DNA of 64,000 nt from a virus (IMGVR_UViG_3300047160_007109:12925-76924), one strand, 5' to 3'. Positions 5,751-53,354 are shown, counted from the stretch's first letter. The notes: generated by a model not told the origin, from the sequence alone. Made by a program: numbers and translations.

Positions 5751-7261
5751 GATGCCGCCTCCTCCGCTTCGTCGTCTTCCCCGGCCGGTTCTGGCGGCTG
5801 GATGATGTGACGGACCCAGCGATCGTCGAGACCGTGCCGAGCCCGAGTCGACGCGACGTACAGGAGCCGCAACTCCTCCGGCGGAGGCTCCTCCTCGCGT
5901 GCCAGCCGGGCCTCGAAATCGTCGGAGAGGAGCACCGTCGGCCACTCCCTCCCCTTCGCCTTGTGCGCCGTCGAGACGATCACGTCAGCGTCGGGTTCCG
6001 GCATCGGATGGCCGAGCGCCGTGATGATCGTCGTCGTGCCGAACTCCTCGACGAGCCGGAAGTTGAGCGCGAGGTCGGAGCCGGACGGGTCGTTGGCGAC
6101 GTAGTCCTCGACCTCGGCCCACGACTTGAAACAGGCGAGGTCCGGGTGCGACGAGAAGCCTTCCTCGCGGAGTTGGCGAGCACCGCGGGCGAACGCGAGG
6201 ACTTCCTTGCCGCCGCCGACGAGATGCGGCGCTCCACCGTCCTGCTGATGGTCGAGGACGTGGCGGACAGCCCGAGCATTCGACCGGCAGAGGATCGCCG
6301 TGTGCGCCTCGTGCGCGCCGACGCGGGACTCGACGGCGTCGTGTCCACGGACTCGGAGCGTCTCGCCGAGGCGGGCGAGGATCAGGTTGGCGTGCTCGGC
6401 GATCGGGTGGCCGAACCGGAATGACTGCGTCAGGTGAGCCCGAGCCGACGCGTCGATCTTGGCGAGGGCGTCGACCGCGCCGCGCCACTGGTAGATCGCC
6501 TGGCGGGAGTCGCCGACCCAGACCCGCTGCGCGTGGTCTTGGCGTTCGACGATGTCGAGCAGGACCGGGTTGGCGTCTTGGGCCTCGTCGAACAAGATCA
6601 CGTCAGCGTCGATCTTCGGGGTCCCGAGTTGCCAGACCTTGAGGTAGACGTCGTGGGAGAAGCGGAGCGTCCCGCCAGGCGACGAGAGGTCAGCCCAGGC
6701 GGTGCGGAGCGCCGGGAGCATCTCCTCGGCGACCGCGTTGTTGTTGACGTACGTCCGCCGTCCGCCGGAGGCGAGCACGTCGATCCCTTCGACGTACGGG
6801 AAGTGCCGGGCCGTCGGCTCCGGGTCGGCCGTCTGGCAGAACGCCGTCGCGGCGCGCATGACGTGCGAGGCGAGCCAGCCGCGCGGGAGCGTCTTGGTCT
6901 GGCTGCCGTACGTGATGTCGAACCCGTAGGTGATGCCGAGCCGGTCGGCGATCTCGATGGAGCGGAGCCGCTTCGACTGGAGCCGATGGGCGTACTGGCG
7001 GCCGACGGCGGCGAACGCGAGCGAGTGCGCCGTCCGGGCCGAGACGTTGCCTGGCATCGAGTTCTCGGCGTCGGTGACGATCGCCTTGTTGAACGCGACG
7101 TACTGGAAGCGGAGCGCCGGGACCGTCGCGGCGATGAACCGCAGCGTCGACGTTTTGCCGGTCCCGGCGAGCGCCTCGATGGCGATGTTCTCCTCCTCGG
7201 AGACGAACAGGTCGCGTGCGGCTTGCTGCTCGTCGGTCGGCTCGAACCCGAGGGCGGTCAT
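5747..7261 (-). CDS. UvrD/Rep-like superfamily 1 helicase
   Basis: ALAGTGKT, FDEAQD, VGDSRQAIYQWRGA, LTQSFRFG, STAHKAKGREW, LYVASTRAR; start at ATGA overlap. Confidence 0.92.
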   Translation of the reverse strand: MTALGFEPTDEQQAARDLFVSEEENIAIEALAGTGKTSTLRFIAATVPALRFQYVAFNKAIVTDAENSMPGNVSARTAHSLAFAAVGRQYAHRLQSKRLRSIEIADRLGITYGFDITYGSQTKTLPRGWLASHVMRAATAFCQTADPEPTARHFPYVEGIDVLASGGRRTYVNNNAVAEEMLPALRTAWADLSSPGGTLRFSHDVYLKVWQLGTPKIDADVILFDEAQDANPVLLDIVERQDHAQRVWVGDSRQAIYQWRGAVDALAKIDASARAHLTQSFRFGHPIAEHANLILARLGETLRVRGHDAVESRVGAHEAHTAILCRSNARAVRHVLDHQQDGGAPHLVGGGKEVLAFARGARQLREEGFSSHPDLACFKSWAEVEDYVANDPSGSDLALNFRLVEEFGTTTIITALGHPMPEPDADVIVSTAHKAKGREWPTVLLSDDFEARLAREEEPPPEELRLLYVASTRARHGLDDRWVRHIIQPPEPAGEDDEAEEAAS

Positions 7262-7617
7262 TCCGGCCATCCGCCCGTCGGCGACGCCGACCATCCAGCC
7301 GCACGTTCTTCACCGATGAGGAGCACGTCGAGTTCGGCCCAGGCGTTGTTGAGGACGAGGGCGAACGCCTCGGACAGCGTGTACGCCTCGACCGGCTTGG
7401 AGGAGCCCGTCGTCTCCTCATCGACGCGCTGTGCGACGACGGCGAGCCGCCGGAGCGCGGCGCGGGGCACGTCCAAGATGGCGACGGTGACGGAGCCGTC
7501 GTCGACGAGACGAGGCCGGAGCCGTTCCACGTCGTAGCCGCGTTCGGCTTCGTCGGCGAGCGCCTGAATGTCGGCGTCGGTGAGGACCCGGCCGGTCCTC
7601 GTGCGGTACTCGGTCAT
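7258..7617 (-). CDS. Hypothetical protein, possible ribbon-helix-helix/CopG-like
   Basis: GRVLTDADIQALADEAERGYDV resembles the N-terminus of actinobacterial CopG-like proteins. Confidence 0.45.
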   Translation of the reverse strand: MTEYRTRTGRVLTDADIQALADEAERGYDVERLRPRLVDDGSVTVAILDVPRAALRRLAVVAQRVDEETTGSSKPVEAYTLSEAFALVLNNAWAELDVLLIGEERAAGWSASPTGGWPE

Positions 7618-7630
7618 GCGTCTCCTCCGC

Positions 7631-8983
7631 TCACATTGGGGCGTGTTCGGTGCAGTAGCCGTCCTCGACAGCCGGGTTCGGGCAGCCGCCCGGCTCCCGG
7701 CACGCCACGACCGCCACAGTGCCGTCTCCCGGCTCGACAGCCGGTTCGGCCGGAGTTGTAGCCGGTTCGGGTTCCGTGACCGTCAGCGAGCCCTCAGGGG
7801 CCGCAGCGGCGACGTTTGCGGCGGCGAGCGTCGCGGCACGGTCCATGCAGGCTTGCCGGTCGACGCAGCGGACGACATCGGAATCGCCGTCGGTCGATTC
7901 CTCGAACGGCCCGGCCTCAGAACGGCAGATGGCGCAGGCGAGCACGGCCGCCTCGTCATGTTCCTGCTCACGTTCGGCTTGCTTCGCTTCGGCGGCGGCG
8001 ATGATGCGGAGCGCCTGACCGGCAGCCGCGCCCTCGATCACGCGCATCGGCGGGAGGCGACGGTCGCGCCACGCGGCGCGTACCTCGTCGACGAGGTCCG
8101 GGTCGAGAGCAGCGACCCGAGACTCCATCTCCGCCCGGGTCTGCGCGGCGGTGAGCGGCTGGTCGACGTTGCGGTCCTCGGCCGGGGCCTCGGGGATCAC
8201 GTCGCCGATGTCGCCCAACTCGTCCGGCGTGTACGTCACTCCGGCGAGGCAGTCCGAGAACAGGTCGCGGCAGAGGATCGACGTAGCCCGGTTCTTCATC
8301 ATCGTGCGAGGGATCTTCTTCCACTGCTCCTTGCCCGAGGCGGCGACGACTTGGATGGCGTCGCCCTGGACGCGCCACGACGAGATGAGGCCCTGATCGA
8401 CGGCGTCGTCGAGGGTGAACTCCGCCTCGTCCTCGTCGCCGTTGTCGACCCGCTTGCCGTGGACGATCGCCCGGTACTGCGGGTCGTCGACGACGACCGG
8501 GTTGATGGAGTGACCGTCGCGCCGGACGAGCGCGCGCATGAGCTTCGCCTCCATCCCGACTTTGCCCTTGATGACGTACAACTGGTCGAGCCCAGCCGTC
8601 AGCGGGATTCCCAGGTCGTTCGCCCGGAGGAGCACGGCGGCGATGTCGTTCGGCTTCTTGCGGAGCGCCTCGGGGACGAGCGTCGATTCGCCGAGGACCT
8701 GCGCGATCCGCATGATCGTGTTGAACCGCGACTCGGACGGGATGACGGAGCCGGGACGTTCTTCGAGCGTCGGAAGCACGTCGGGTTCTCCGGCGGCCGG
8801 AGCCTCGATCGCGGCGAGCGGCGTGTGCGCCCGGATCGCGAGTTCGGCGACGGCCCGGAGGTCAGCGACCTTCGCCGACTTGCCGAGCGCCGGGGCGTGG
8901 TAGTGCTCGGCGACTTCGCGCGCTTGCTGGCCGGTCAGGGACGGGACCTGCTCGACGGTGATGGTGGCGGCGTCGAAACTCAC
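7631..8983 (-). CDS. RecT/Red-beta-like single-strand annealing protein with long N- and C-terminal extensions
   Basis: LRKKPNDIAAV..LGIP...LYVIKGKVGMEAKLMRALV, WKKIPRTMMKNRATSILCRDLFSDCLAGVTYTPDELGD. Confidence 0.85.
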   Translation of the reverse strand: MSFDAATITVEQVPSLTGQQAREVAEHYHAPALGKSAKVADLRAVAELAIRAHTPLAAIEAPAAGEPDVLPTLEERPGSVIPSESRFNTIMRIAQVLGESTLVPEALRKKPNDIAAVLLRANDLGIPLTAGLDQLYVIKGKVGMEAKLMRALVRRDGHSINPVVVDDPQYRAIVHGKRVDNGDEDEAEFTLDDAVDQGLISSWRVQGDAIQVVAASGKEQWKKIPRTMMKNRATSILCRDLFSDCLAGVTYTPDELGDIGDVIPEAPAEDRNVDQPLTAAQTRAEMESRVAALDPDLVDEVRAAWRDRRLPPMRVIEGAAAGQALRIIAAAEAKQAEREQEHDEAAVLACAICRSEAGPFEESTDGDSDVVRCVDRQACMDRAATLAAANVAAAAPEGSLTVTEPEPATTPAEPAVEPGDGTVAVVACREPGGCPNPAVEDGYCTEHAPM

Positions 8984-45259: not shown

Positions 45260-47104
45260 TCAGGATGCGGTCGAGCAGGTGTACGGGGTGACCGTTCCGC
45301 CCCGGCTGCCGTTGTCGCAGAACTGGACGTCGATGTAGGCCCAGTGCTGAGGCCCGGTCTTGGCGGTGAGGAACCCCTCTTCTGCGAAGAGTTGCGCCTT
45401 GTTCATCCGCATCAGGTCCGGCGACCGCTGGACTCCGGTGTTGGTCTCCCCGGTCTCCCCGAACAGAGCCCCGGACGTGTCGATGATCCGGACCCGCCAC
45501 TCGCCGTTGAGGTCGGGGACGCCGATCTCGGGATCGCCCGGCTCCTGGAGGCGGAACAGCGGGTAGCCCGGTTCCGTCGATGGAGCGTCGATCGTCTCGA
45601 TCACTTCGGCGACACCGTCGAGCGTCGCGGCGAGTTCGCTGACGACGTCGACCGGCTGGAGGTCCTGACCGAACGCCTTCGACACACGGTCGACGCCGAG
45701 GAGCGTCGAGACGGTCCGCGGAATGTAGACCGTGTACCGGGGCTCGGCGATGCGGTCGGCGTACGCCATCTGGGCGATCAGGGCGTTGACCGCCTTGGCG
45801 AACGTCGGCATCGCGCCGTACGAGCCGGTGAACGTGTACGCCCCGGAGAGGGCGTCGAGGTCGGCGAGGATCTGCGCCTCCTTGTTGCGTGCCTTCGCCG
45901 CCATCAGCGCGTTGAGGAAGTTCTGGACGACCTCGGGGTTGCTCATCTCCGTCGTGTTGTCGAACCGGAGCGCCGCCGTCGCCCACTTGATCCGCACGTT
46001 CGAGACCGTCTGGCACGTCACGTCGACGATCGGCTTCCACGTCGCCGAGCTACCGACGTTGACGTTGCCCTGCGACGTCTCCGTCCAGATCGTCGACCCG
46101 GACGAAACCGCCGAGAGCTTGATCGACGGGATGAACTGGAACCCGCCCCGGCCGACCGGTCGGCCCGGCAGCGACGGTGCGACGACCGCCGTCGTGGAGA
46201 ACGCATCCGGAATGTCGCGGATCGGCTCCAGCGGATCACAGATCGCGGCCGTGTGGGCGGGACGCTCCGCCTGGTCGAAGCCGCGCCATCCCCTGACGTA
46301 CGGGTGCTCGGCCTGCGCCTGGCGGATGATCTCGTGGTTCCGCTCGACGTTCGAGCCCGACAGCATGTCGCCGGTGAACGGCTGGTCGCCCATCTGGTCG
46401 AACGCGGCGACGGAGGCGAGATACGTCGAGCCCTCCCCGCCTTCCTTGACGCGGTCGATCATGTGGCCGAGCGTCCCGAAATCGAGGTCGGAGCCCTGCT
46501 GCGCGAGGCCGGACCCGGCGGCTGCTTGCATCGCGACCCGGGGACGGGTCGACACGGCGGCGGTGCGGGTCGGTTCCTCGGTGATGGCCGACGGTTCCGT
46601 CACCGTCACGACCGGCGTGCCTTCGCCCGGAGCGATGTCCGCCGCGGAGGCGGAAGCGAACGCCGGGTTCGGGTCGGGCAGCGTCGGGAGCGGGTTGGCG
46701 TCGAGGTCGGCGAGCGGAGCGTCGACAGCGGTCTGCTGCCGGGCCTGGCGGCCGTCCCACGCGGCGGAGAGCCGCAGCGCGTCGCGGTGAATCGCCTGGA
46801 GGATCCGGACGTCTTCCTCGGTGCGGGCGAGCGGCCGACGAGCGTCGTAGGCGTCGCGCGCCTGGCGGGACGCCTCCTGGACCTGCGCGTCGGTCAGGCC
46901 ATCGAGGACGTCGGGGATCTGCGGAATCGCCGGGAGCGCCGGAGGAGCCTCCGCGGCCGGAGCCGCATCGGTTTCGGCGGCCGGGTTCTCCGTGACTTCG
47001 CCGGTCGGGGCGGACTCACTCGTCTCGGAGGTCGTGGGCTCCGGCGGAACGGCCTCGGCCGTCGGCTCGGACGGAGCAGGGGACTCGGGCGTCTCGTCGG
47101 GCAT
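45260..47104 (-). CDS. Major capsid protein with N-terminal scaffold-like domain
   Basis: Acidic Pro/Glu N-terminus; ICDPLEP...GRGGFQFIP; DLMRMNKAQLFAEE. Confidence 0.85.
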   Translation of the reverse strand: MPDETPESPAPSEPTAEAVPPEPTTSETSESAPTGEVTENPAAETDAAPAAEAPPALPAIPQIPDVLDGLTDAQVQEASRQARDAYDARRPLARTEEDVRILQAIHRDALRLSAAWDGRQARQQTAVDAPLADLDANPLPTLPDPNPAFASASAADIAPGEGTPVVTVTEPSAITEEPTRTAAVSTRPRVAMQAAAGSGLAQQGSDLDFGTLGHMIDRVKEGGEGSTYLASVAAFDQMGDQPFTGDMLSGSNVERNHEIIRQAQAEHPYVRGWRGFDQAERPAHTAAICDPLEPIRDIPDAFSTTAVVAPSLPGRPVGRGGFQFIPSIKLSAVSSGSTIWTETSQGNVNVGSSATWKPIVDVTCQTVSNVRIKWATAALRFDNTTEMSNPEVVQNFLNALMAAKARNKEAQILADLDALSGAYTFTGSYGAMPTFAKAVNALIAQMAYADRIAEPRYTVYIPRTVSTLLGVDRVSKAFGQDLQPVDVVSELAATLDGVAEVIETIDAPSTEPGYPLFRLQEPGDPEIGVPDLNGEWRVRIIDTSGALFGETGETNTGVQRSPDLMRMNKAQLFAEEGFLTAKTGPQHWAYIDVQFCDNGSRGGTVTPYTCSTAS

Positions 47105-47354: not shown

Positions 47355-48137
47355 TCACGCGGCCGCCTTCTCGGAGAACGTCACGCCGAACTTCTTTCCG
47401 GCCCGTTGGATCGCCGCCTTCACCTTGGCGAGATTCTCGGCGGAGTAGAGCGCCGCGTTGTCGCCCTGGTTGATGTACGACCAGGCCGCCCGGACGTGCG
47501 CCCGAGTGTCGATCGGGTACCGCTTCTGGCCGTCCTTCTGGTAGCCGGGGTCGGCGTACTCGACGTCGCCGTACGGCTTCTTCGCCGACGTGGCGGCGAG
47601 CCGGGCACACGTCGAGCAGTTCCCGTCGATGAACACGTGCAACTCGGCGTCGGCGTCGTCGAGCGTCGCGAGGGCGGCGGCGAGATGCGATTCGACCTCG
47701 TCGTCGAGCGCCGCCAGAGCCGAAGCCACGTTGCCCTGCGTGACCGCCTGGATGAACTGGAGGACGCCCTGCATCTGGGCTTGGAGGTCCTGCACCGCGC
47801 CCTCGCAGGCTTCCATCCGGGCGTTCATGTCGCCGCCCTCGTCGCCTTCGGGTTCCCCGGCCATCTGCATCGCACCGTCGGGCGGGAGCGGCTGCGTGAA
47901 CGCCGCAGCCGGAGGCCCCGCCGTGCGAGGACCGTGGATCTCGATGCCGCCATCGACCGGGACGAGCGTCGCTGCCCCGGCGACCCGGAGTACCTGACCG
48001 TCGGGGAGCGTGATGACCGTCTCCGCTTCGCCGTCGTCGACGGGACGGCCGAGGTCTTCGGCGTCGACGATCCCCTCGATCGCGGCGCGGACGGTTTCCT
48101 CGTCGTAGGCGTGGCCGCCGATCGTCACGTTCGGCAT
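47355..48137 (-). CDS. Scaffold-like protein with C-terminal DUF6582 domain
   Basis: YGDVEYADPG...RYPIDT..HVRAAWSYINQ..NAALYS..L.KVKAAI..AGKKFGV. Confidence 0.8.
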   Translation of the reverse strand: MPNVTIGGHAYDEETVRAAIEGIVDAEDLGRPVDDGEAETVITLPDGQVLRVAGAATLVPVDGGIEIHGPRTAGPPAAAFTQPLPPDGAMQMAGEPEGDEGGDMNARMEACEGAVQDLQAQMQGVLQFIQAVTQGNVASALAALDDEVESHLAAALATLDDADAELHVFIDGNCSTCARLAATSAKKPYGDVEYADPGYQKDGQKRYPIDTRAHVRAAWSYINQGDNAALYSAENLAKVKAAIQRAGKKFGVTFSEKAAA

Positions 48138-48177: not shown

Positions 48178-50400
48178 TCAGGCCCGCTTGAGCGCGTATA
48201 CGTCGGACAGGAGCGACGACGCCATGGCGTACGCCCCGGAGAATTGCGGCTCCCGTTGGGAGAGCGCCTCCAGGCCGCCCTTGACTTGGTTGAGCCGGTC
48301 GATCGCCACTTGGAGGCCGCCGGACCGGAGCGACCCGGCAGCGTTCTTCGTGGTCCCGGCGTAGTGCCGCTGGTCCTGCTTGAGATTTTCGCCGTGCTGG
48401 CCGCCTGCCTTGACGGATTCCTTCATGATCGCTGCGTGGAGCTTGTCGGCCCGGTCGGCGAGTTTCCCTGCCGCCTTGCTCTTGTCGGCCTCTTTCGAGC
48501 CTCCCGAGCCCTCGCCGAACCTGCCGTGATCGTCCCTGGCCTGATCGGGCGAGTAGCCGAGCCGGGCCGCGACTACGGCGCGGATCGCCGCGATGTCGGA
48601 AGCGGACGCCGCCTGCGGAGCGCCGCCGCCCGAGACGACGTGACCGTCGGGGCCGACGAGACGGCCGAACACGTACTGATAGCCCTTCGGGAGCGTCGGC
48701 GTCTTCGTCGGCCCGGCGTGGCCCTTCAACGCCGGAGGCTTCTTGCCGCCGCCCTTGCCTTTGCCGCCGCCCTTCTTGCCGCCGCCCTTCCCGGCCGCTT
48801 TCGCTGCGCCCTTCGCTGCGCCCTTCGCAGCCGACTTGACGGCCTGGGCGTACTGCTTCAAGTGCTGCGCGATCTGGGCCTGCTGCTGCTTGGCGGCCGT
48901 CGCCGCGGCTTTCTGCAACGCGGCAGTCGCCCGAGCGGCCTGCGACTGAGCGGCAGACGAGTTCCCCGCCGCGTTGTGGTACGCAGCCGACAGGAGCGAC
49001 GCCGCCGCCGAGTTCAGCGGGAGCGACAGCGCCGGATTCGACGAGCCGTACGCCGGGAGCGCCTGCGAAATCGACGTGAACGGGTCCACGGCGGGAGTCA
49101 CCTGAGCGAGCCGGGCGAAGATCGCCTCATCATCAGGTCGCCAGTCGGGATGCTCGACCGACGCGGCACGTTGCGGACGGACGAGCGCGAGGCCCGGCCG
49201 GGTGACGAGCGTCGGGCCGAGCGAGTCGTACCCTCCAGCCGGGTTCAGCCGGTCCGGCTGATACCAGCGCCAGTCGCCCGACAGGGCGCAGCGGCGGAGG
49301 AGCGCGACGTCGCCCCACGTCGAGCCGGGAACGAGAGCCCCGGCGAGCCAGCCGCCGTGTTCGTCGTCGCCGACGCGGACGAGCATCATCTGCGCGTTCG
49401 GGTCGGCATAGTGCCGGGCAGCGACCGACGGTGCCGCCGTTTCGGAGGCGTGGCCGCCCGAGTTGCCGACGACGCCGACGAGGAGCAGCCGTCCACCGTC
49501 GGCGGAGGCGACTTGGGAGTCGTCGAGGACGACGGCGTCTTGCTGGTGGAAGCGGGCGTAGCCGGTCGGTGACGGCTCCGGATACCAGCACTGATGCTGG
49601 CCGGGGCGCAGCGTCGCGGTGCGGTCCACGATGCAGACTCCGGTGTGGTACCAGTAGCCGCCGACCCGGCCGTCGTCGGTGACCGTCAGGCGCAGGATCT
49701 CGTGGCCGTCGTCGCCGACTTCCGACGATGCGCCGAAGCCATGTTCGGCCCGGTAGCCCTCGACCCAGTCGGGACGGCCGAACCATGACAGCGGCGGGTA
49801 CTCGGGGACCGGGACCCGGTCGGCGAACGGGAGCGTCGCGAGTGACGCGACCCGGGCAGCGCCGACGACGCCTTGGCCCATCGACGTCGCCATCGGGCCG
49901 ACGTCTTGGTCGGTGTCGAGCGAGCCGGGCACGTCGACGTCGCCGTCACGGTCCGGGTCGAGTTCCGGGGCGAGCGGGACGCCGAGGCCGAGGATCCCCG
50001 CGGCGTGGAGATGCCGTCCGGCTTGGGCGAGATGCCGGTGACGGCGCATCGCTGCCGTCTCGACCATCGGCGGATCCCCGACCGCGCCGCCGTGGGCGTG
50101 CGGCCCGGCCGGTTCCCCGGTGGCGTCGATGTGGCGCTCCTGGCAGAACCCTTCGGGGTCGTCGATGTGCTGCCCGGCGATCGCGACGCAGGCCTCGAAG
50201 TCGCCGGGCGAACCCCAATTGATCTGGCCGTCGGCTCCGGCGTTGTACCAGTCGATGAGCGCCTGCGGATTCCCAGCGTTTCCGGCGGCGGAGCGCGCAT
50301 CGGCGCTCCCCGAGCACGACGCGCACGTCCCGCCGCAGGAGCATCCCGGAGCCGCCGACGGTGGGTCGTAGACGATCGCCGCGAGACGCACGGAGGTCAT
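48178..50400 (-). CDS. Capsid maturation protease polyprotein
   Basis: WGSPGDFEACV..DPEGFC module; GNSGGHA..ARHYAD, VRVGDDEHGGWLAGAL, LSGDWR protease-type motifs; Lys-rich tract; YSPDQARDDHGRF tag. Confidence 0.75.
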   Translation of the reverse strand: MTSVRLAAIVYDPPSAAPGCSCGGTCASCSGSADARSAAGNAGNPQALIDWYNAGADGQINWGSPGDFEACVAIAGQHIDDPEGFCQERHIDATGEPAGPHAHGGAVGDPPMVETAAMRRHRHLAQAGRHLHAAGILGLGVPLAPELDPDRDGDVDVPGSLDTDQDVGPMATSMGQGVVGAARVASLATLPFADRVPVPEYPPLSWFGRPDWVEGYRAEHGFGASSEVGDDGHEILRLTVTDDGRVGGYWYHTGVCIVDRTATLRPGQHQCWYPEPSPTGYARFHQQDAVVLDDSQVASADGGRLLLVGVVGNSGGHASETAAPSVAARHYADPNAQMMLVRVGDDEHGGWLAGALVPGSTWGDVALLRRCALSGDWRWYQPDRLNPAGGYDSLGPTLVTRPGLALVRPQRAASVEHPDWRPDDEAIFARLAQVTPAVDPFTSISQALPAYGSSNPALSLPLNSAAASLLSAAYHNAAGNSSAAQSQAARATAALQKAAATAAKQQQAQIAQHLKQYAQAVKSAAKGAAKGAAKAAGKGGGKKGGGKGKGGGKKPPALKGHAGPTKTPTLPKGYQYVFGRLVGPDGHVVSGGGAPQAASASDIAAIRAVVAARLGYSPDQARDDHGRFGEGSGGSKEADKSKAAGKLADRADKLHAAIMKESVKAGGQHGENLKQDQRHYAGTTKNAAGSLRSGGLQVAIDRLNQVKGGLEALSQREPQFSGAYAMASSLLSDVYALKRA
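48508..48570 (-). repeat. Tag copy A: AARLGYSPDQARDDHGRFGEG
   Basis: 63-nt coding repeat. Confidence 0.9.
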
Positions 50401-51401
50401 TGTGCCGGACGCGGCGACGACTTGTCGCGATAGTCGACCTTGGCGAGCGGGCGTGGACGAGGCAGGTACTTGGCGACGACCTCGGGCGGGATATAGCCGA
50501 CGCAGGAGTCCTCGCCGTGATCGTGGGCGGCCGCCACGGCGGCGAGTTTATGGCCGACGAGCGGCTCCCGGGAGTTGACGTCCTGGAGGACGCCAGTCAG
50601 GACGCCCATCGTCGACGGGTTGACGCCCTCGACGCCCATCTGGCGGGCGGCGAACGCCTCGGCGAAGTTCTCGTACTTGTTCGTCGTGCCGTACCCGGAG
50701 ACCGCGTTGACGGGACGGCCGAAAAACGTGCCGACGTTCCCCTCGGTGACGCCATAGACCTTGTCGAGCACGTGACCCAACTCGTGAGCGACGACCGACT
50801 CGGTTTTGCCAGAGGGATGGAAAGCCATCTCCGTTCCGCTTTTGAGTTCGGCGGAGGCGCGCACGGCTGGCCCCATCGCGCCCATGTCTGTGTACCAGCG
50901 TTCGTTGAACAGGATCCCGGGCTGATTCGTGCCGTCCTGATTGGCGTCGTGGAGAGCGACGGCGAACGCGGAGTCGTTTTGGTACTGGCCCATCTCGACG
51001 GATTGCATCATCCCGGCCGCCGTCGGGAACTCCTCGGCGAACTTCTCCGACTGGTTCGCGACGCCTTCGGCGAGCTTGCTGTTCATCGCGCCGAGGTCGA
51101 CCCGAGCATTCGGGAACGCGGCCTGGACGCGGGCCTCGGACTGCTTGAGCGACTCGACCCGGCGGTCCGCTTCCTTGCGGGAGAACCCCTGCCGCATGAC
51201 TTCCTGGGTGAGCGCGCTCGGTGGCGTGTAACCCGATTCCTCCGCTCGGCCGCCCGATCCTTCCCCGAACCTGCCGTGGTCGTCCCTGGGTTGGTCCGGC
51301 GAGTACGCCAGCCGGGCGAGAGCGACGGAGCCGCGCCGGGCGGCGAGCACGCGCGCCCGGTTCGGCGCGGCGTCCGGGTCGGGTGCCGTATGCGTCTTCA
51401 C
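50397..51401 (-). CDS. Tagged zincin metallopeptidase (MuF-toxin-like)
   Basis: VAHELGHVLD...VSGYGTTNKYENFAEAF. Confidence 0.8.
   Translation of the reverse strand: MKTHTAPDPDAAPNRARVLAARRGSVALARLAYSPDQPRDDHGRFGEGSGGRAEESGYTPPSALTQEVMRQGFSRKEADRRVESLKQSEARVQAAFPNARVDLGAMNSKLAEGVANQSEKFAEEFPTAAGMMQSVEMGQYQNDSAFAVALHDANQDGTNQPGILFNERWYTDMGAMGPAVRASAELKSGTEMAFHPSGKTESVVAHELGHVLDKVYGVTEGNVGTFFGRPVNAVSGYGTTNKYENFAEAFAARQMGVEGVNPSTMGVLTGVLQDVNSREPLVGHKLAAVAAAHDHGEDSCVGYIPPEVVAKYLPRPRPLAKVDYRDKSSPRPAQ
51258..51320 (-). repeat. Tag copy B: LARLAYSPDQPRDDHGRFGEG
   Basis: 63-nt coding repeat. Confidence 0.9.
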
Positions 51402-52135
51402 GCTGCCGCCGCCTTGGTCTCCTCGGCCGTCCAGCCCCAGTAGTCGGAGCCGACGCCGAGCGGGTCCTGAGTCCAGCCGACCGACTGCCAGAACGGCAGA
51501 GCGTCCGGCGTGGGTGATCCCATCAGCGGCAGCCCTTTCGCTGCGGCTTCCCCAGCGGCCGCTTTGACGAGCGCCGAGCCTGCGCCGGGTACGACGCCGG
51601 TCGAGCCGAGATAGTCGACGTAGGCGTACGCCGGGACGGTACCGTCCTCAGTCGTTTCCTCGGGACGGTCGATGACGGAGATGGCCCCGGCCATGCCGAC
51701 GCCTTCGCCTTGGGCGACGATCGTTGACGTGTTGTCCTCGACGGCCCCGCGGATGGCGTACTCGGTGAACAGGAATCCCACCTTGGAGCGGTCGCTCAGG
51801 TCCTCGCCGACGAGTTCGTGTACGTCGTCGAGTTGGGCGACGACATCCTCGATGTCGATCTCGTCCTTGTTCTCGCCGAGGTCGAGCGGCTCCGTCGAGC
51901 CGCCGTTCTCGTCGAACTTGGCGGCCGACGTGTTGAGGGCGTCGAGCCCGGCGGAGCCCGCAGGCGAGGAGCCGGATTCGCCCTCGCCGAACCGGCCGTG
52001 GTCGTCCCTGGGCTGATCCGGCGAGTACGCCAGGCGCGCGAGGACAGCCACGGCCGGATTGTCGCAGACGTCAGGCCGACGAGCCCGGACTCCTGCCGCG
52101 CCGCCACTCGGACCGACGCCCAGCGGGAGTCCCAC
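51398..52135 (-). CDS. Tagged GNAT-fold acetyltransferase (start uncertain: 52135 or 52051)
   Basis: YVDYLGS..VPGAGSALVKAA...GLPL...PDALPFWQSVGW matches GNAT motifs A and B. Confidence 0.7.
   Translation of the reverse strand: MGLPLGVGPSGGAAGVRARRPDVCDNPAVAVLARLAYSPDQPRDDHGRFGEGESGSSPAGSAGLDALNTSAAKFDENGGSTEPLDLGENKDEIDIEDVVAQLDDVHELVGEDLSDRSKVGFLFTEYAIRGAVEDNTSTIVAQGEGVGMAGAISVIDRPEETTEDGTVPAYAYVDYLGSTGVVPGAGSALVKAAAGEAAAKGLPLMGSPTPDALPFWQSVGWTQDPLGVGSDYWGWTAEETKAAAA
51980..52042 (-). repeat. Tag copy C: LARLAYSPDQPRDDHGRFGEG
   Basis: 63-nt coding repeat, protein-identical to copy B. Confidence 0.9.
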
Positions 52136-52370
52136 GTGCCGTGTCGTCGATCGCCGCGGCGCGCGCCGCCGCTTCCCGTTCCCGGCGGCGACGCCGGTCG
52201 CGTTCGGCGAGTCCCTTCGCCTTCCCGGCGGCCCGGATCCTCGCTTGGCGCTCAGAGCGGCTCTCTGCCGGTCTCTCCGTCCTCAGGAGATTCCCCTCAC
52301 GGTCGTACACTCGGACGTCGGAGAAGCGAGGACGGTCTTCGGGAGGCCCGGCCGGGCTGGGGCTACTCAC
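52071..52370 (-). CDS. Basic Arg-rich hypothetical protein
   Basis: Helical RSERQARIRAAGKAKG; overlaps the longer GNAT start. Confidence 0.45.
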   Translation of the reverse strand: MSSPSPAGPPEDRPRFSDVRVYDREGNLLRTERPAESRSERQARIRAAGKAKGLAERDRRRRREREAAARAAAIDDTARGTPAGRRSEWRRGRSPGSSA

Positions 52371-52466: not shown

Positions 52467-53354
52467 CTAGACCCGCTCCACCGTTCCGGCCATCCGGTCG
52501 AGGACCTCGACCACGTCCGGGTCGTCGACCTCGGCGATGCCACGCTCGAAGTAGACGTTGTGCCGGGCAGCGCGCACGACCCGAGACGGCGACCGGAACC
52601 GGACCGGCCGGTCGAGCGGCTTCGCTTCCTCCGGCATCTGCCCGGCGAGGAGAGCGCGCATCAGCCGTGGGACCTCATCGGCGGACTGGTACGCGCGGAG
52701 GAGCGTGATCGAGCCGGGGTACAGCGGCGACCGTGCGCCGGGCGTCTGATGCGGGTGCCACAGATGCCAGACGTGCCCGTCGAGGAACCATCCGGGGCCG
52801 AGGAGCGTCGACAGTGCCCGGCCCCACGCCTCGTCTTCGCCGCCCCAGCCGCGGAACCGTGGGTCGAGCGGGCAGGCATCCCAGCCCGACGCGGGCAGGA
52901 CGACGATGCCGCCGCCGCGGACGCCGACGTACTCCCGCCGGTCGAGCGTCCCCGGAGCCAGGATCGGTGACTGCCCGGCGGCCGTCGCCTCGTACAGCGC
53001 CCTCGTCGTTTCCGGACGGAGGCGGCGGACGGTCTCGTACGGCATCGCCCACGGCGCGGCCCGGTCGACGATCTTGCGGACGCAGCGGGCGAGCGCCGAG
53101 CGGGTGACGAACACGTCGGCGTCGGCGACGACGAGGACCGTCGCTTCCGTCTCGGAGCGTGCTCGGGCGAGCGCCTCGCCTTTGCTCCACCACGGATCGC
53201 CGGGGCCGCGCTCGTCCGGTGTCCGGTCGGGCTTGCCGACGACGATGTCCCAGTCGGGGAAGTCCCGCCGGTACCGGTCGCGGACGTAGCCGAACGCGGC
53301 GTCGCGCCACTCGTCGAGGCCTGAGACGTACGGGATGAGGACGGCGACGCTCAC
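52467..53354 (-). CDS. Glycosyltransferase (GT-A fold, galactosyltransferase-like C-terminal motif)
   Basis: VAVLIP, VVADADV, DPRFRGWGGEDEAW, HLWHP. Confidence 0.85.
   Translation of the reverse strand: MSVAVLIPYVSGLDEWRDAAFGYVRDRYRRDFPDWDIVVGKPDRTPDERGPGDPWWSKGEALARARSETEATVLVVADADVFVTRSALARCVRKIVDRAAPWAMPYETVRRLRPETTRALYEATAAGQSPILAPGTLDRREYVGVRGGGIVVLPASGWDACPLDPRFRGWGGEDEAWGRALSTLLGPGWFLDGHVWHLWHPHQTPGARSPLYPGSITLLRAYQSADEVPRLMRALLAGQMPEEAKPLDRPVRFRSPSRVVRAARHNVYFERGIAEVDDPDVVEVLDRMAGTVERV

Follow-up and report, generated by a model that had tools for sequence, protein, structure and literature searches.

Phage late virion genes are known to encode polyvalent proteins, in which two to fifteen unrelated domains share one polypeptide (Iyer, Burroughs, Anand, de Souza and Aravind; Iyer et al. 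2017, PMC5512222). Their effector domains (ADP-ribosyltransferase, GNAT, phosphoesterase/Acb1-like, ParB-like and zincin) are often fused to MuF or portal proteins, and packaging and injection have been proposed for them. The same work unified a zincin-like metallopeptidase (MPTase) with anthrax lethal factor (PDB 4dv8) and predicted that it processes the polyvalent proteins; its text makes no mention of a tag motif, a linker or a defined cleavage site. In phage T4, the internal proteins and Alt, which are otherwise unrelated proteins of the head interior, share a short N-terminal leader that the prohead protease removes; here targeting and cleavage have been demonstrated, the leader ends in a Leu/Ile-x-Glu site, and the cargo is interchangeable (PMC9026906, PMC5694885). 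A third system is formed by the MuF polymorphic toxins (Jamet et al. 2017, PMC5576092; Bxa, PMC11699363), where a constant N-terminus is joined to swappable C-terminal toxins (ADP-ribosyltransferase, deamidase, alarmone synthetase); no junction motif is described in either paper. The present work concerns a 20-residue peptide, hereafter the tag, which stands in front of unrelated domains in three neighboring head genes of a phage. These genes lie in a stretch of 64,000 nucleotides (nt), referred to as the window, which covers bases 12925-76924 of one viral contig (IMGVR_UViG_3300047160_007109) of 84,747 bp, with 70% GC and an estimated completeness of 81%.

The tag is read here as an address-and-release leader that is recognized, and probably cut, by machinery resident in the head, in the manner of the T4 leader; this reading, which proceeds by analogy, is given a probability of about 0.5. 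The class of system involved (head-packaged polyvalent effectors, MuF toxins, T4 leaders) is already known. The tag motif itself appears to be new, as we found no prior description of it in literature searches under several spellings, in Pfam or in solved structures. A search of PDB sequences with the tag profile gave nothing at E <= 10, and no Pfam model covers the tag, DUF7461 matching only the residues behind one copy. The original prediction made from this DNA had treated the recurrence of PRDxxG(R/K)F-like motifs in head proteins as established; no source for that statement was found in the literature, Pfam or the PDB.

Results and Discussion

The Tag Peptide

Scanned in all six frames, the window and the complete 84,747-bp genome contain exactly three copies of the tag, (L/A)ARL(A/G)YSPDQ(P/A)RDDHGRFGEG, all on the minus strand (Table 1). 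A repeat search agrees, grouping these copies as a 69-nt family with 78-83% nucleotide identity, so that the three sites named by the original prediction are confirmed with no others added, and the claim that each copy precedes an unrelated domain also holds: a GNAT-like fold, a HELGH zincin and a four-helix bundle follow them.

Over the core RL(A/G)YSPDQ(P/A)RDDHGRFGEG, the copies are pairwise identical at 17-19 of 19 residues. At the DNA level they share 76-83% identity over 69-75 nt, the value varying with the stretch chosen, and exact matches run for 14-18 nt at most. In a codon-wise comparison, the proportion of differing sites is 0.51-0.62 for synonymous positions (pS) and 0.09-0.14 for nonsynonymous ones (pN). 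Because about half of the synonymous sites differ and the protein is nearly identical, the copies are old and the peptide is under selection. The same pS, set against an almost constant protein, rules out chance, recent duplication and gene conversion as the source of the copies. These sequence comparisons characterize the tag as a short linear motif under strong selection at the protein level.

The tag is likely flexible, as suggested by AlphaFold2 (AF2) models in which the predicted local distance difference test (pLDDT) lies below 50 over residues 605-635 of the protease protein and at 61-64 over the copy in the zincin protein. The copies in the GNAT and zincin proteins are N-terminal, as a T4-type leader on unrelated proteins would be, and the third copy is internal. 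The likeness to the T4 leader thus consists in a short leader on unrelated head proteins with interchangeable cargo, with head entry and removal presumed in the case of the tag. Unlike the tag, the T4 leader is neither reiterated between polyprotein domains nor conserved across phyla, and the two share no sequence similarity.

A separate observation concerns codon choice. Of the six arginines in the tag cores (48517-48540, 51267-51290, 51989-52012), five are encoded by AGG: that of P-R-D in all three copies and that of G-R-F in two. Across twelve genes of the window phage, AGG accounts for only 2.3% of the 348 Arg codons. This excess may reflect a translational pause or a nucleotide-level constraint; a general bias of tags toward rare Arg codons is not seen in other tag-bearing loci.

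Distribution and Grammar of the Tag

A profile of 33 columns, built from ten tag copies, was searched against 1.84 billion representative proteins and matched 1,813 protein clusters at E <= 0.001, 363 of them at E <= 1e-10. Tag-bearing proteins typically contain three copies. Back-translated tag patterns retrieved 68 viral-contig loci (41-75% GC) and 22 bacterial-genome loci of several phyla, each as a 16-kb stretch. The resulting cross-phage consensus is h-h-K-[YF]-[SND]-[PED]-D-Q-[PAE]-R-D-[DE]-[HR]-G-R-[FW]-[GTA]-S-G-G-G; because the search pattern prescribed Q, R, D, G, R and F/W, these positions are invariant partly by construction. Over this range of GC content, it is the peptide that is conserved, not the DNA. 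A tblastn search with 22-25-residue tags against 50,697 deposited phage genomes gave no match at E = 10; the queries were too short for the result to be informative on cultured phages.

The arrangement around the tag is regular. A Gly/Ser-rich linker and then a domain always follow it, and a domain-sized segment lies downstream in the 68 viral loci and in 144 tag-rich proteins, with a median tag spacing of 246 amino acids (aa) and a smallest downstream segment, in the viral loci, of 53 aa. In 60 of the 144 proteins a tag lies among residues 1-40, and in some it opens the chain. Tags that have lost their cargo, as at the end of the window zincin and of the sister-phage protease (see below), are decayed or truncated, which implies that the unit under selection is the tag together with its downstream domain. 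This comparative evidence supports the modular character ascribed to the tag at the outset, namely that of a portable module in front of unrelated cargo. The profile and the scan of neighbors and downstream domains, proposed with the original prediction as its check, returned both enrichment in head modules and diverse cargo. On these data the tag is a widespread and apparently undescribed marker before head-carried enzyme modules.

Tags of the same locus resemble one another more than tags of different loci: agreement at variable positions is 0.52 within and 0.35 between loci, and none of 1,000 label permutations reaches 0.52. The choice between F and W is the same in 78% of pairs from one locus, with 52% expected, and only about half of the identical residues are encoded by the same codon. 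This pattern is suggestive of a phage-encoded partner of the tag inside each phage, with the qualification that shared descent can contribute to the within-locus likeness.

Exchange of Cargo between Related Phages

The window phage was compared with a sister phage represented by two contigs. In the window, the head module runs in the order glycosyltransferase, GNAT protein, zincin protein, 740-aa protease protein, DUF6582 protein and major capsid protein; the three tagged genes stand directly upstream of the last two, and the third of them holds the prohead protease. In the sister phage, the order is glycosyltransferase (76% protein identity), a 191-aa tag-ADP-ribosyltransferase protein, a 751-aa protein, the protease (77%) and the DUF6582 protein (63%). 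The late (head) gene placement expected of polyvalent proteins (Iyer et al. 2017) is therefore found in the window and repeated in its relative. The sister 751-aa protein is composed of tag-X-tag-zincin-degenerate tag-second ADP-ribosyltransferase-like domain, and the sister protease ends within a truncated tag, with no tail.

Flanking proteins of the two phages are 42-77% identical, and five of their six tags keep the same 19 residues, RLAYSPDQPRDDHGRFGEG. Homology between the window GNAT protein and the sister ADP-ribosyltransferase protein is limited to 29 residues around the tag, and that between the protease genes stops about 30 nt before tag 3. At the DNA level, the alignment extends over the flanking genes and over tag islands of 62-72 nt (80-89% identity), and not over the cargo. 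As read from these alignments, cargo is replaced, added and lost between the two phages, with breakpoints at the tags. Since the tag is the sole conserved element between cargo genes, it forms the boundary of cargo exchange in related phages. The cargo swapping at the tag that had been postulated is supported by the replacement of GNAT by an ADP-ribosyltransferase, by the extra modules and by the presence or absence of the tail.

The survival of nucleotide homology in the cargo region solely as tag islands, together with a RecT-like annealing protein encoded by the window phage, is also what would be expected if the repeats acted at the DNA level only, as recombination anchors or as products of recent duplication or gene conversion, the peptide being functionless. 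This explanation is highly improbable, because the copies within the genome differ at about half of their synonymous sites and retain their amino acids, and because the peptide rather than the DNA is kept across loci of very different GC content. The earlier suggestion that the repeats are recombination anchors is weakened within the genome, where the exact runs are short and the copies too diverged to resemble active recombination substrates, and fits better as exchange between phages.

In the sister 751-aa protein (L094:1595-3850), an Arg / Ser-Thr-Ser-like / Glu-x-Glu pattern typical of ADP-ribosyltransferases is recognized by eye at the C-terminus. The sister phage would possess two such enzymes if this pattern holds.

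The Zincin, GNAT and Protease Proteins

Cargo 2 is predicted from its model to be a gluzincin of the peptidase family M34 fold. The AF2 model has a predicted template modeling score of 0.72 and a core (residues 60-270) with pLDDT above 90. VIA-align superimposes it on the catalytic domain of anthrax lethal factor with Z 11.4-12.0 (175-190 residues aligned, root-mean-square deviation of about 4 Å; Z 11.7 for PDB 4dv8) and on the Pro-Pro endopeptidases PPEP-1/2/3 with Z 8.3-8.8. Foldseek alone gives E = 0.02 only, Pfam matches remain below the cut-off, and no Pfam or PHROG match is obtained at standard thresholds. The candidate third zinc ligand is E244 in ExFAExF, and HExxH and this downstream Glu are invariant in 34 homologous domains. 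The HELGH motif with its Glu and the lethal-factor Z scores place the domain with the lethal-factor-related zincin that is a hub of polyvalent proteins. The first 36 codons of the gene have a GC content at third codon positions (GC3) of 0.92.

A jackhmmer search from this zincin recovers about 70 related domain copies in tag-punctuated proteins, with tag-zincin-tag as the repeated unit. In 148 tag-rich proteins, HExxH occurs 109 times against 8 expected by composition, at least once in 68 proteins, and typically 100-175 residues after one tag and 75-150 before the next. The window zincin is thus, by homology, a member of the commonest domain family of tag-punctuated proteins.

Cargo 1 would be a GNAT acetyltransferase-like protein, a class that includes the acetyl-CoA-binding motif; the assignment stands at the level of a lead. 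Its Atlas structure reaches template modeling scores of 0.52-0.59 to GNAT clusters over residues 44-217 (Atlas feature score 0.87), and no match was obtained in Pfam at E <= 10 or in PHROG. The original prediction began this gene at 52135. The start is most likely GTG 52051, as GC3 is 0.86 downstream of it and 0.68 in 52052-52135, and the public gene call (P0006) begins there. With this start, the tag lies at the extreme N-terminus of the protein, and the Ala/Arg-rich stretch described ahead of it is probably untranslated. A 99-aa Arg-rich open reading frame (52071-52370) is located between the glycosyltransferase and GNAT genes and stops 20 nt short of GTG 52051, with an ambiguous GC3 of 0.76.

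The protease protein is more composite. PHROG matches to head maturation proteases and virion proteins cover residues 238-379, among them one to phrog_18402 (head maturation protease, E = 4e-13). As expected of a prohead protease, H317 and S374 do not vary among 32 sequences, those of the window protease and its 31 homologues. The protein has no Pfam match, and Foldseek of the whole 740-aa model returns generic helical bundles only, the protease fold not being identified. In the AF2 map, a disordered stretch separates the N-terminal helical module from the protease domain, a long coiled coil spans residues 440-537, and the tag lies in a disordered Gly/Lys linker. The helical module turns up again in L021, an unrelated viral locus, where it follows a tag (E = 4e-27); this recurrence indicates that the module is itself mobile.

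The four-helix bundle behind tag 3, for which a structure search gave generic helical-bundle matches only, is missing from the sister phage and from 30 of the 31 protease homologues. The basic helical tail, originally described as part of the protease, is therefore not protease proper, tag and tail occurring together in only one of the 31. A constant tag on this protease family is likewise ruled out.

Association with Phage Heads

The segments ahead of the first tag (n = 63, Pfam) include 13 portal and 11 MuF proteins, along with Acb1, pyrophosphatase and zeta toxin. Behind the tag (n = 128), about 15 ADP-ribosyltransferases, seven zeta toxins, five MuF domains and two prohead proteases are found, and topoisomerase IB, kinase, deamidase, PBECR3, Ntox37 and ferritin families also occur. 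The top multi-tag proteins contain Acb1, GNAT, ADP-ribosyltransferase, histidine phosphatase, ParB-like nuclease and MuF. When the reading frames of the loci are clustered, portal proteins appear in about 29 loci, MuF in 21, ADP-ribosyltransferases in 20 and an XkdF-like protease in 17, the last being followed by a tag, as in the window, in three of the 17. The proposed link of the tag to the head module is upheld by this enrichment in the portal, MuF, protease and capsid modules of many phages.

In size, domain content and head-gene context, the tag-rich proteins correspond to the polyvalent proteins described by Iyer et al. 2017: they carry 2-9 tags, extend to 3,849 aa and hold the same kinds of effector domains, and the zincin family matches the MPTase. 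Instead of joining its modules in one giant polypeptide, the window distributes them over separate genes: the GNAT and zincin proteins each bear a single cargo, and at least four structured parts can be counted in the protease protein. The sister phage fuses three tagged modules. MuF toxins resemble the present system in being head-module proteins with swappable C-termini, and MuF often stands directly before the first tag in the retrieved loci, whereas the window genome has no detected MuF domain.

Some of these observations would be equally expected of a pure docking peptide that binds a pocket on the capsid interior, the scaffold or the portal and is never cut. Solo proteins start with the tag, the tags of one phage are uniform and lineage-specific, and the tag is present on the protease, a protein required to enter the prohead. 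On such an account, however, the tags behind portal or MuF and between every domain pair of the polyproteins would be redundant addresses; the tag is moreover conserved across phyla whose capsid, portal and scaffold families differ, and it occurs in chromosomal cassettes with no head genes. Docking without cleavage is consequently held to be unlikely. Encapsulin cargo-loading peptides, which are short and flexible, direct unrelated enzymes into an HK97-fold shell. They differ from the tag in being usually C-terminal, with a hydrophobic Gly/Ser/Leu-type consensus, in having no cleavage site and in not being reiterated between domains.

Chromosomal Cassettes

Some alphaproteobacterial chromosomes contain cassettes in which the tag follows a conserved helical N-terminus and precedes a variable C-terminus, in one case a HELGH zincin. 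Orphan cassettes are found in Hyphomicrobiales, Caulobacterales and Azospirillaceae. Their neighbors are rpoD, uvrD, oxidoreductase and polysaccharide genes. Tandem paralogues (L076, L087, L073) share 87-94% identity as far as the tag and are unrelated beyond it. Other bacterial tag loci are prophages: one (L075) equals a viral contig (L020), and L077, L079, L081, L084 and L091 carry portal, protease or capsid genes. The original prediction had held that a tag scattered across non-head genes would speak against it; this is the case in part, since some chromosomal tag proteins stand beside rpoD, uvrD and polysaccharide genes.

The cassettes look like polymorphic-toxin cassettes, to judge by their architecture. 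Homology that ends at a motif, with unrelated domains behind it, is the mark of polymorphic-toxin junctions, and it is found between the window and sister phages and likewise among the L076 and L087 paralogues. VENN (CdiA) and PxxxxDPxGL (Rhs) are similarly short motifs between a constant delivery part and a variable effector, at which paralogue homology stops; MARTX toxins, with effector arrays cut into single domains by CPD processing, are comparable by analogy only. These junctions differ from the tag in their sequences and delivery machines, and no autoproteolytic domain flanks the tag.

The cassettes may be served by a phage-like particle encoded elsewhere, or the tag may act alone as a junction motif. 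The second option leads to a capsid-independent account, in which the tag is a self-acting or target-cell-triggered release or translocation motif and phage head proteins are one carrier among others. The constant helical part with variable C-termini, the tandem paralogues, the non-phage neighbors and the retention of the tag core across phyla and head-protein families all agree with it. This account is nevertheless improbable: most tags are located in head modules, behind portal or MuF; their covariation within each phage suggests a phage-encoded partner; a 17-residue flexible motif has no obvious catalytic apparatus; and the orphan cassettes could serve a prophage or gene transfer agent elsewhere in the same genomes.

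Proposed Function

If the tag is an address-and-release leader, it would label the cargo modules of a phage polyvalent or head-packaged effector system, which in the window phage would be the GNAT protein, the lethal-factor-like zincin and the helical bundle appended to the prohead protease. Machinery encoded by the phage and resident in the prohead, namely the prohead protease, the co-traveling M34-like zincin or both, would recognize the tag in trans and cut at or beside it. A solo protein would thereby be relieved of a short leader, and a module fused to portal, MuF, protease or another module would be detached from it in time to be ejected with the DNA. Address and release are combined in this proposal because fused modules need a cut in order to leave with the DNA and solo tag-first proteins need an address. 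The wider claim, of a universal portable load-and-release signal of tailed phages, by which any domain behind the tag would enter the prohead and be freed by a dedicated lethal-factor-like zincin or the prohead protease, is regarded as doubtful.

Several findings weigh against an address-and-release leader. In the window phage, MuF (PF04233) has no match at E <= 1 in the whole 84.7-kb genome, estimated as 81% complete, which speaks against it as the tag receptor there, and the portal lies 17 kb from the tagged genes. Within the protease family, one of 31 homologues carries a complete tag and one other a truncated remnant. The HExxH domain is present in the tag proteins of only 12 of 60 viral loci, and the zincin is thereby ruled out as a universal processing enzyme. 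Several unrelated portal and protease families co-occur with the tag; because it travels with such different partners, a single conserved receptor is hard to name. Finally, the chromosomal cassettes have no head genes within 6 kb, and this argues, from gene context, that the tag can act without a capsid.

As regards the cut itself, no Leu/Ile-x-Glu site of the T4 type is conserved after the tag in the consensus of the copies. When the protease domain (residues 190-400) was modeled in complex with the tag, from alignments of 32 and 10 rows, respectively, the score was 0.02 where the mark is 0.32, a result that counts neither way. Assemblin-type proteases cut Ala-Ser sites, and the residues just behind the tag ([GTA]-S) resemble sites of this type. 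Family M34 enzymes tend toward cuts at prolyl bonds; the tag has two conserved prolines.

Gene Context

The features of the locus are collected in Table 1. Nearly all genes of the phage genome are on the minus strand. The portal (897 aa, phrog_776) is encoded at the contig end, upstream of the rest of the head module, from which it is separated by glycosyltransferase, methyltransferase and ParB-like genes. The DUF6582 domain, which has its own gene in the window, is fused to the protease in one homologue (P0160) and lies within 640-680-aa proteins in other tag-bearing loci (e.g. L034:11207-13180); this distribution suggests a scaffold-like partner of the window's protease family. Compared as DNA with the 50,697 deposited phage genomes, the 6-kb region gave a single match, 64 nt of the glycosyltransferase, in a Streptomyces phage.

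Table 1. Coordinates of the tagged genes, their domains and related features (window positions unless a locus is named; pI, isoelectric point)
Feature	Coordinates	Strand	Remarks
Glycosyltransferase gene	52467-53354		
Tag-GNAT cargo gene	51398-52051	-	217 aa from GTG 52051; upstream GTG 52135 would give 245 aa
Tag copy 1, LARLAYSPDQPRDDHGRFGEG	51980-52042	-	Residues 4-24 of the GNAT protein
Tag-zincin gene	50397-51401	-	334 aa; GTG start overlaps GNAT stop (GTGA)
Tag copy 2, LARLAYSPDQPRDDHGRFGEG	51258-51320	-	Residues 28-48 of the zincin protein; isolated beta-bridges at residues 39 and 45
HELGH zinc-binding motif (H206, E207, H210)	50772-50786	-	Invariant columns in the 34-sequence alignment A6
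Possible decayed second tag at zincin C-terminus (AKYLPRPRP...RDKSS)	50400-50474	-	Aligns under the downstream tag of homologous zincin units in A6; weak, alignment only
Protease polyprotein gene	48178-50400	-	740 aa: helical module, prohead protease, coiled coil, Gly/Lys linker, tag, four-helix bundle
Small N-terminal helical module (residues ~45-100)	50101-50268	-	phrog_6439; pLDDT 64-84
Prohead protease domain (residues ~190-400)	49201-49833	-	pLDDT ~90; PHROG protease families; conserved His and Ser
Tag copy 3, AARLGYSPDQARDDHGRFGEG	48508-48570	-	Residues 611-631 of the protease protein; disordered stretch
C-terminal four-helix bundle, accessory cargo behind tag 3	48184-48495	-	Helices 636-739, pLDDT ~90; pI 9.7
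DUF6582 protein with coiled coil, scaffold position	47355-48137	-	Pfam PF20223, E = 1.7e-20; 63% identity to sister-phage protein
Major capsid protein	45260-47104	-	phrog_777 major head protein, E = 9e-15
Portal gene	L070:4961-7654 (genome 81885-84578)		Portal domain at residues 96-479 only; ~400 C-terminal residues without family match
Chromosomal tag cassettes	L072:5611-6621; L085:5629-6576; L073:5740-6624, 7461-8375; L076:4761-5231, 5881-6543; L087:1745-5292; L089:5881-6978		

Conclusions

Head-carried proteins that enter with the DNA act before phage gene expression, which makes them prime candidates for counter-defense. Outside T4-like and giant phages there has been no earlier sequence rule for such proteins; the tag would supply one, covering at least 1,813 protein clusters. 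It would also mark the domain boundaries in giant polyvalent proteins, point to hundreds of uncharacterized cargo domains and offer a simple handle for placing foreign proteins into capsids. The window and sister phages form a compact natural experiment, with a shared chassis and tag and different cargo, in which the function is directly testable. Should the load-and-release proposal be true, a scan for the tag would define a large hidden set of injected effectors across bacterial phyla, including anti-CBASS Acb1, ADP-ribosyltransferases, acetyltransferases, kinases and many unknown domains, and the toxin-like cassettes of the alphaproteobacteria would use the same signal.

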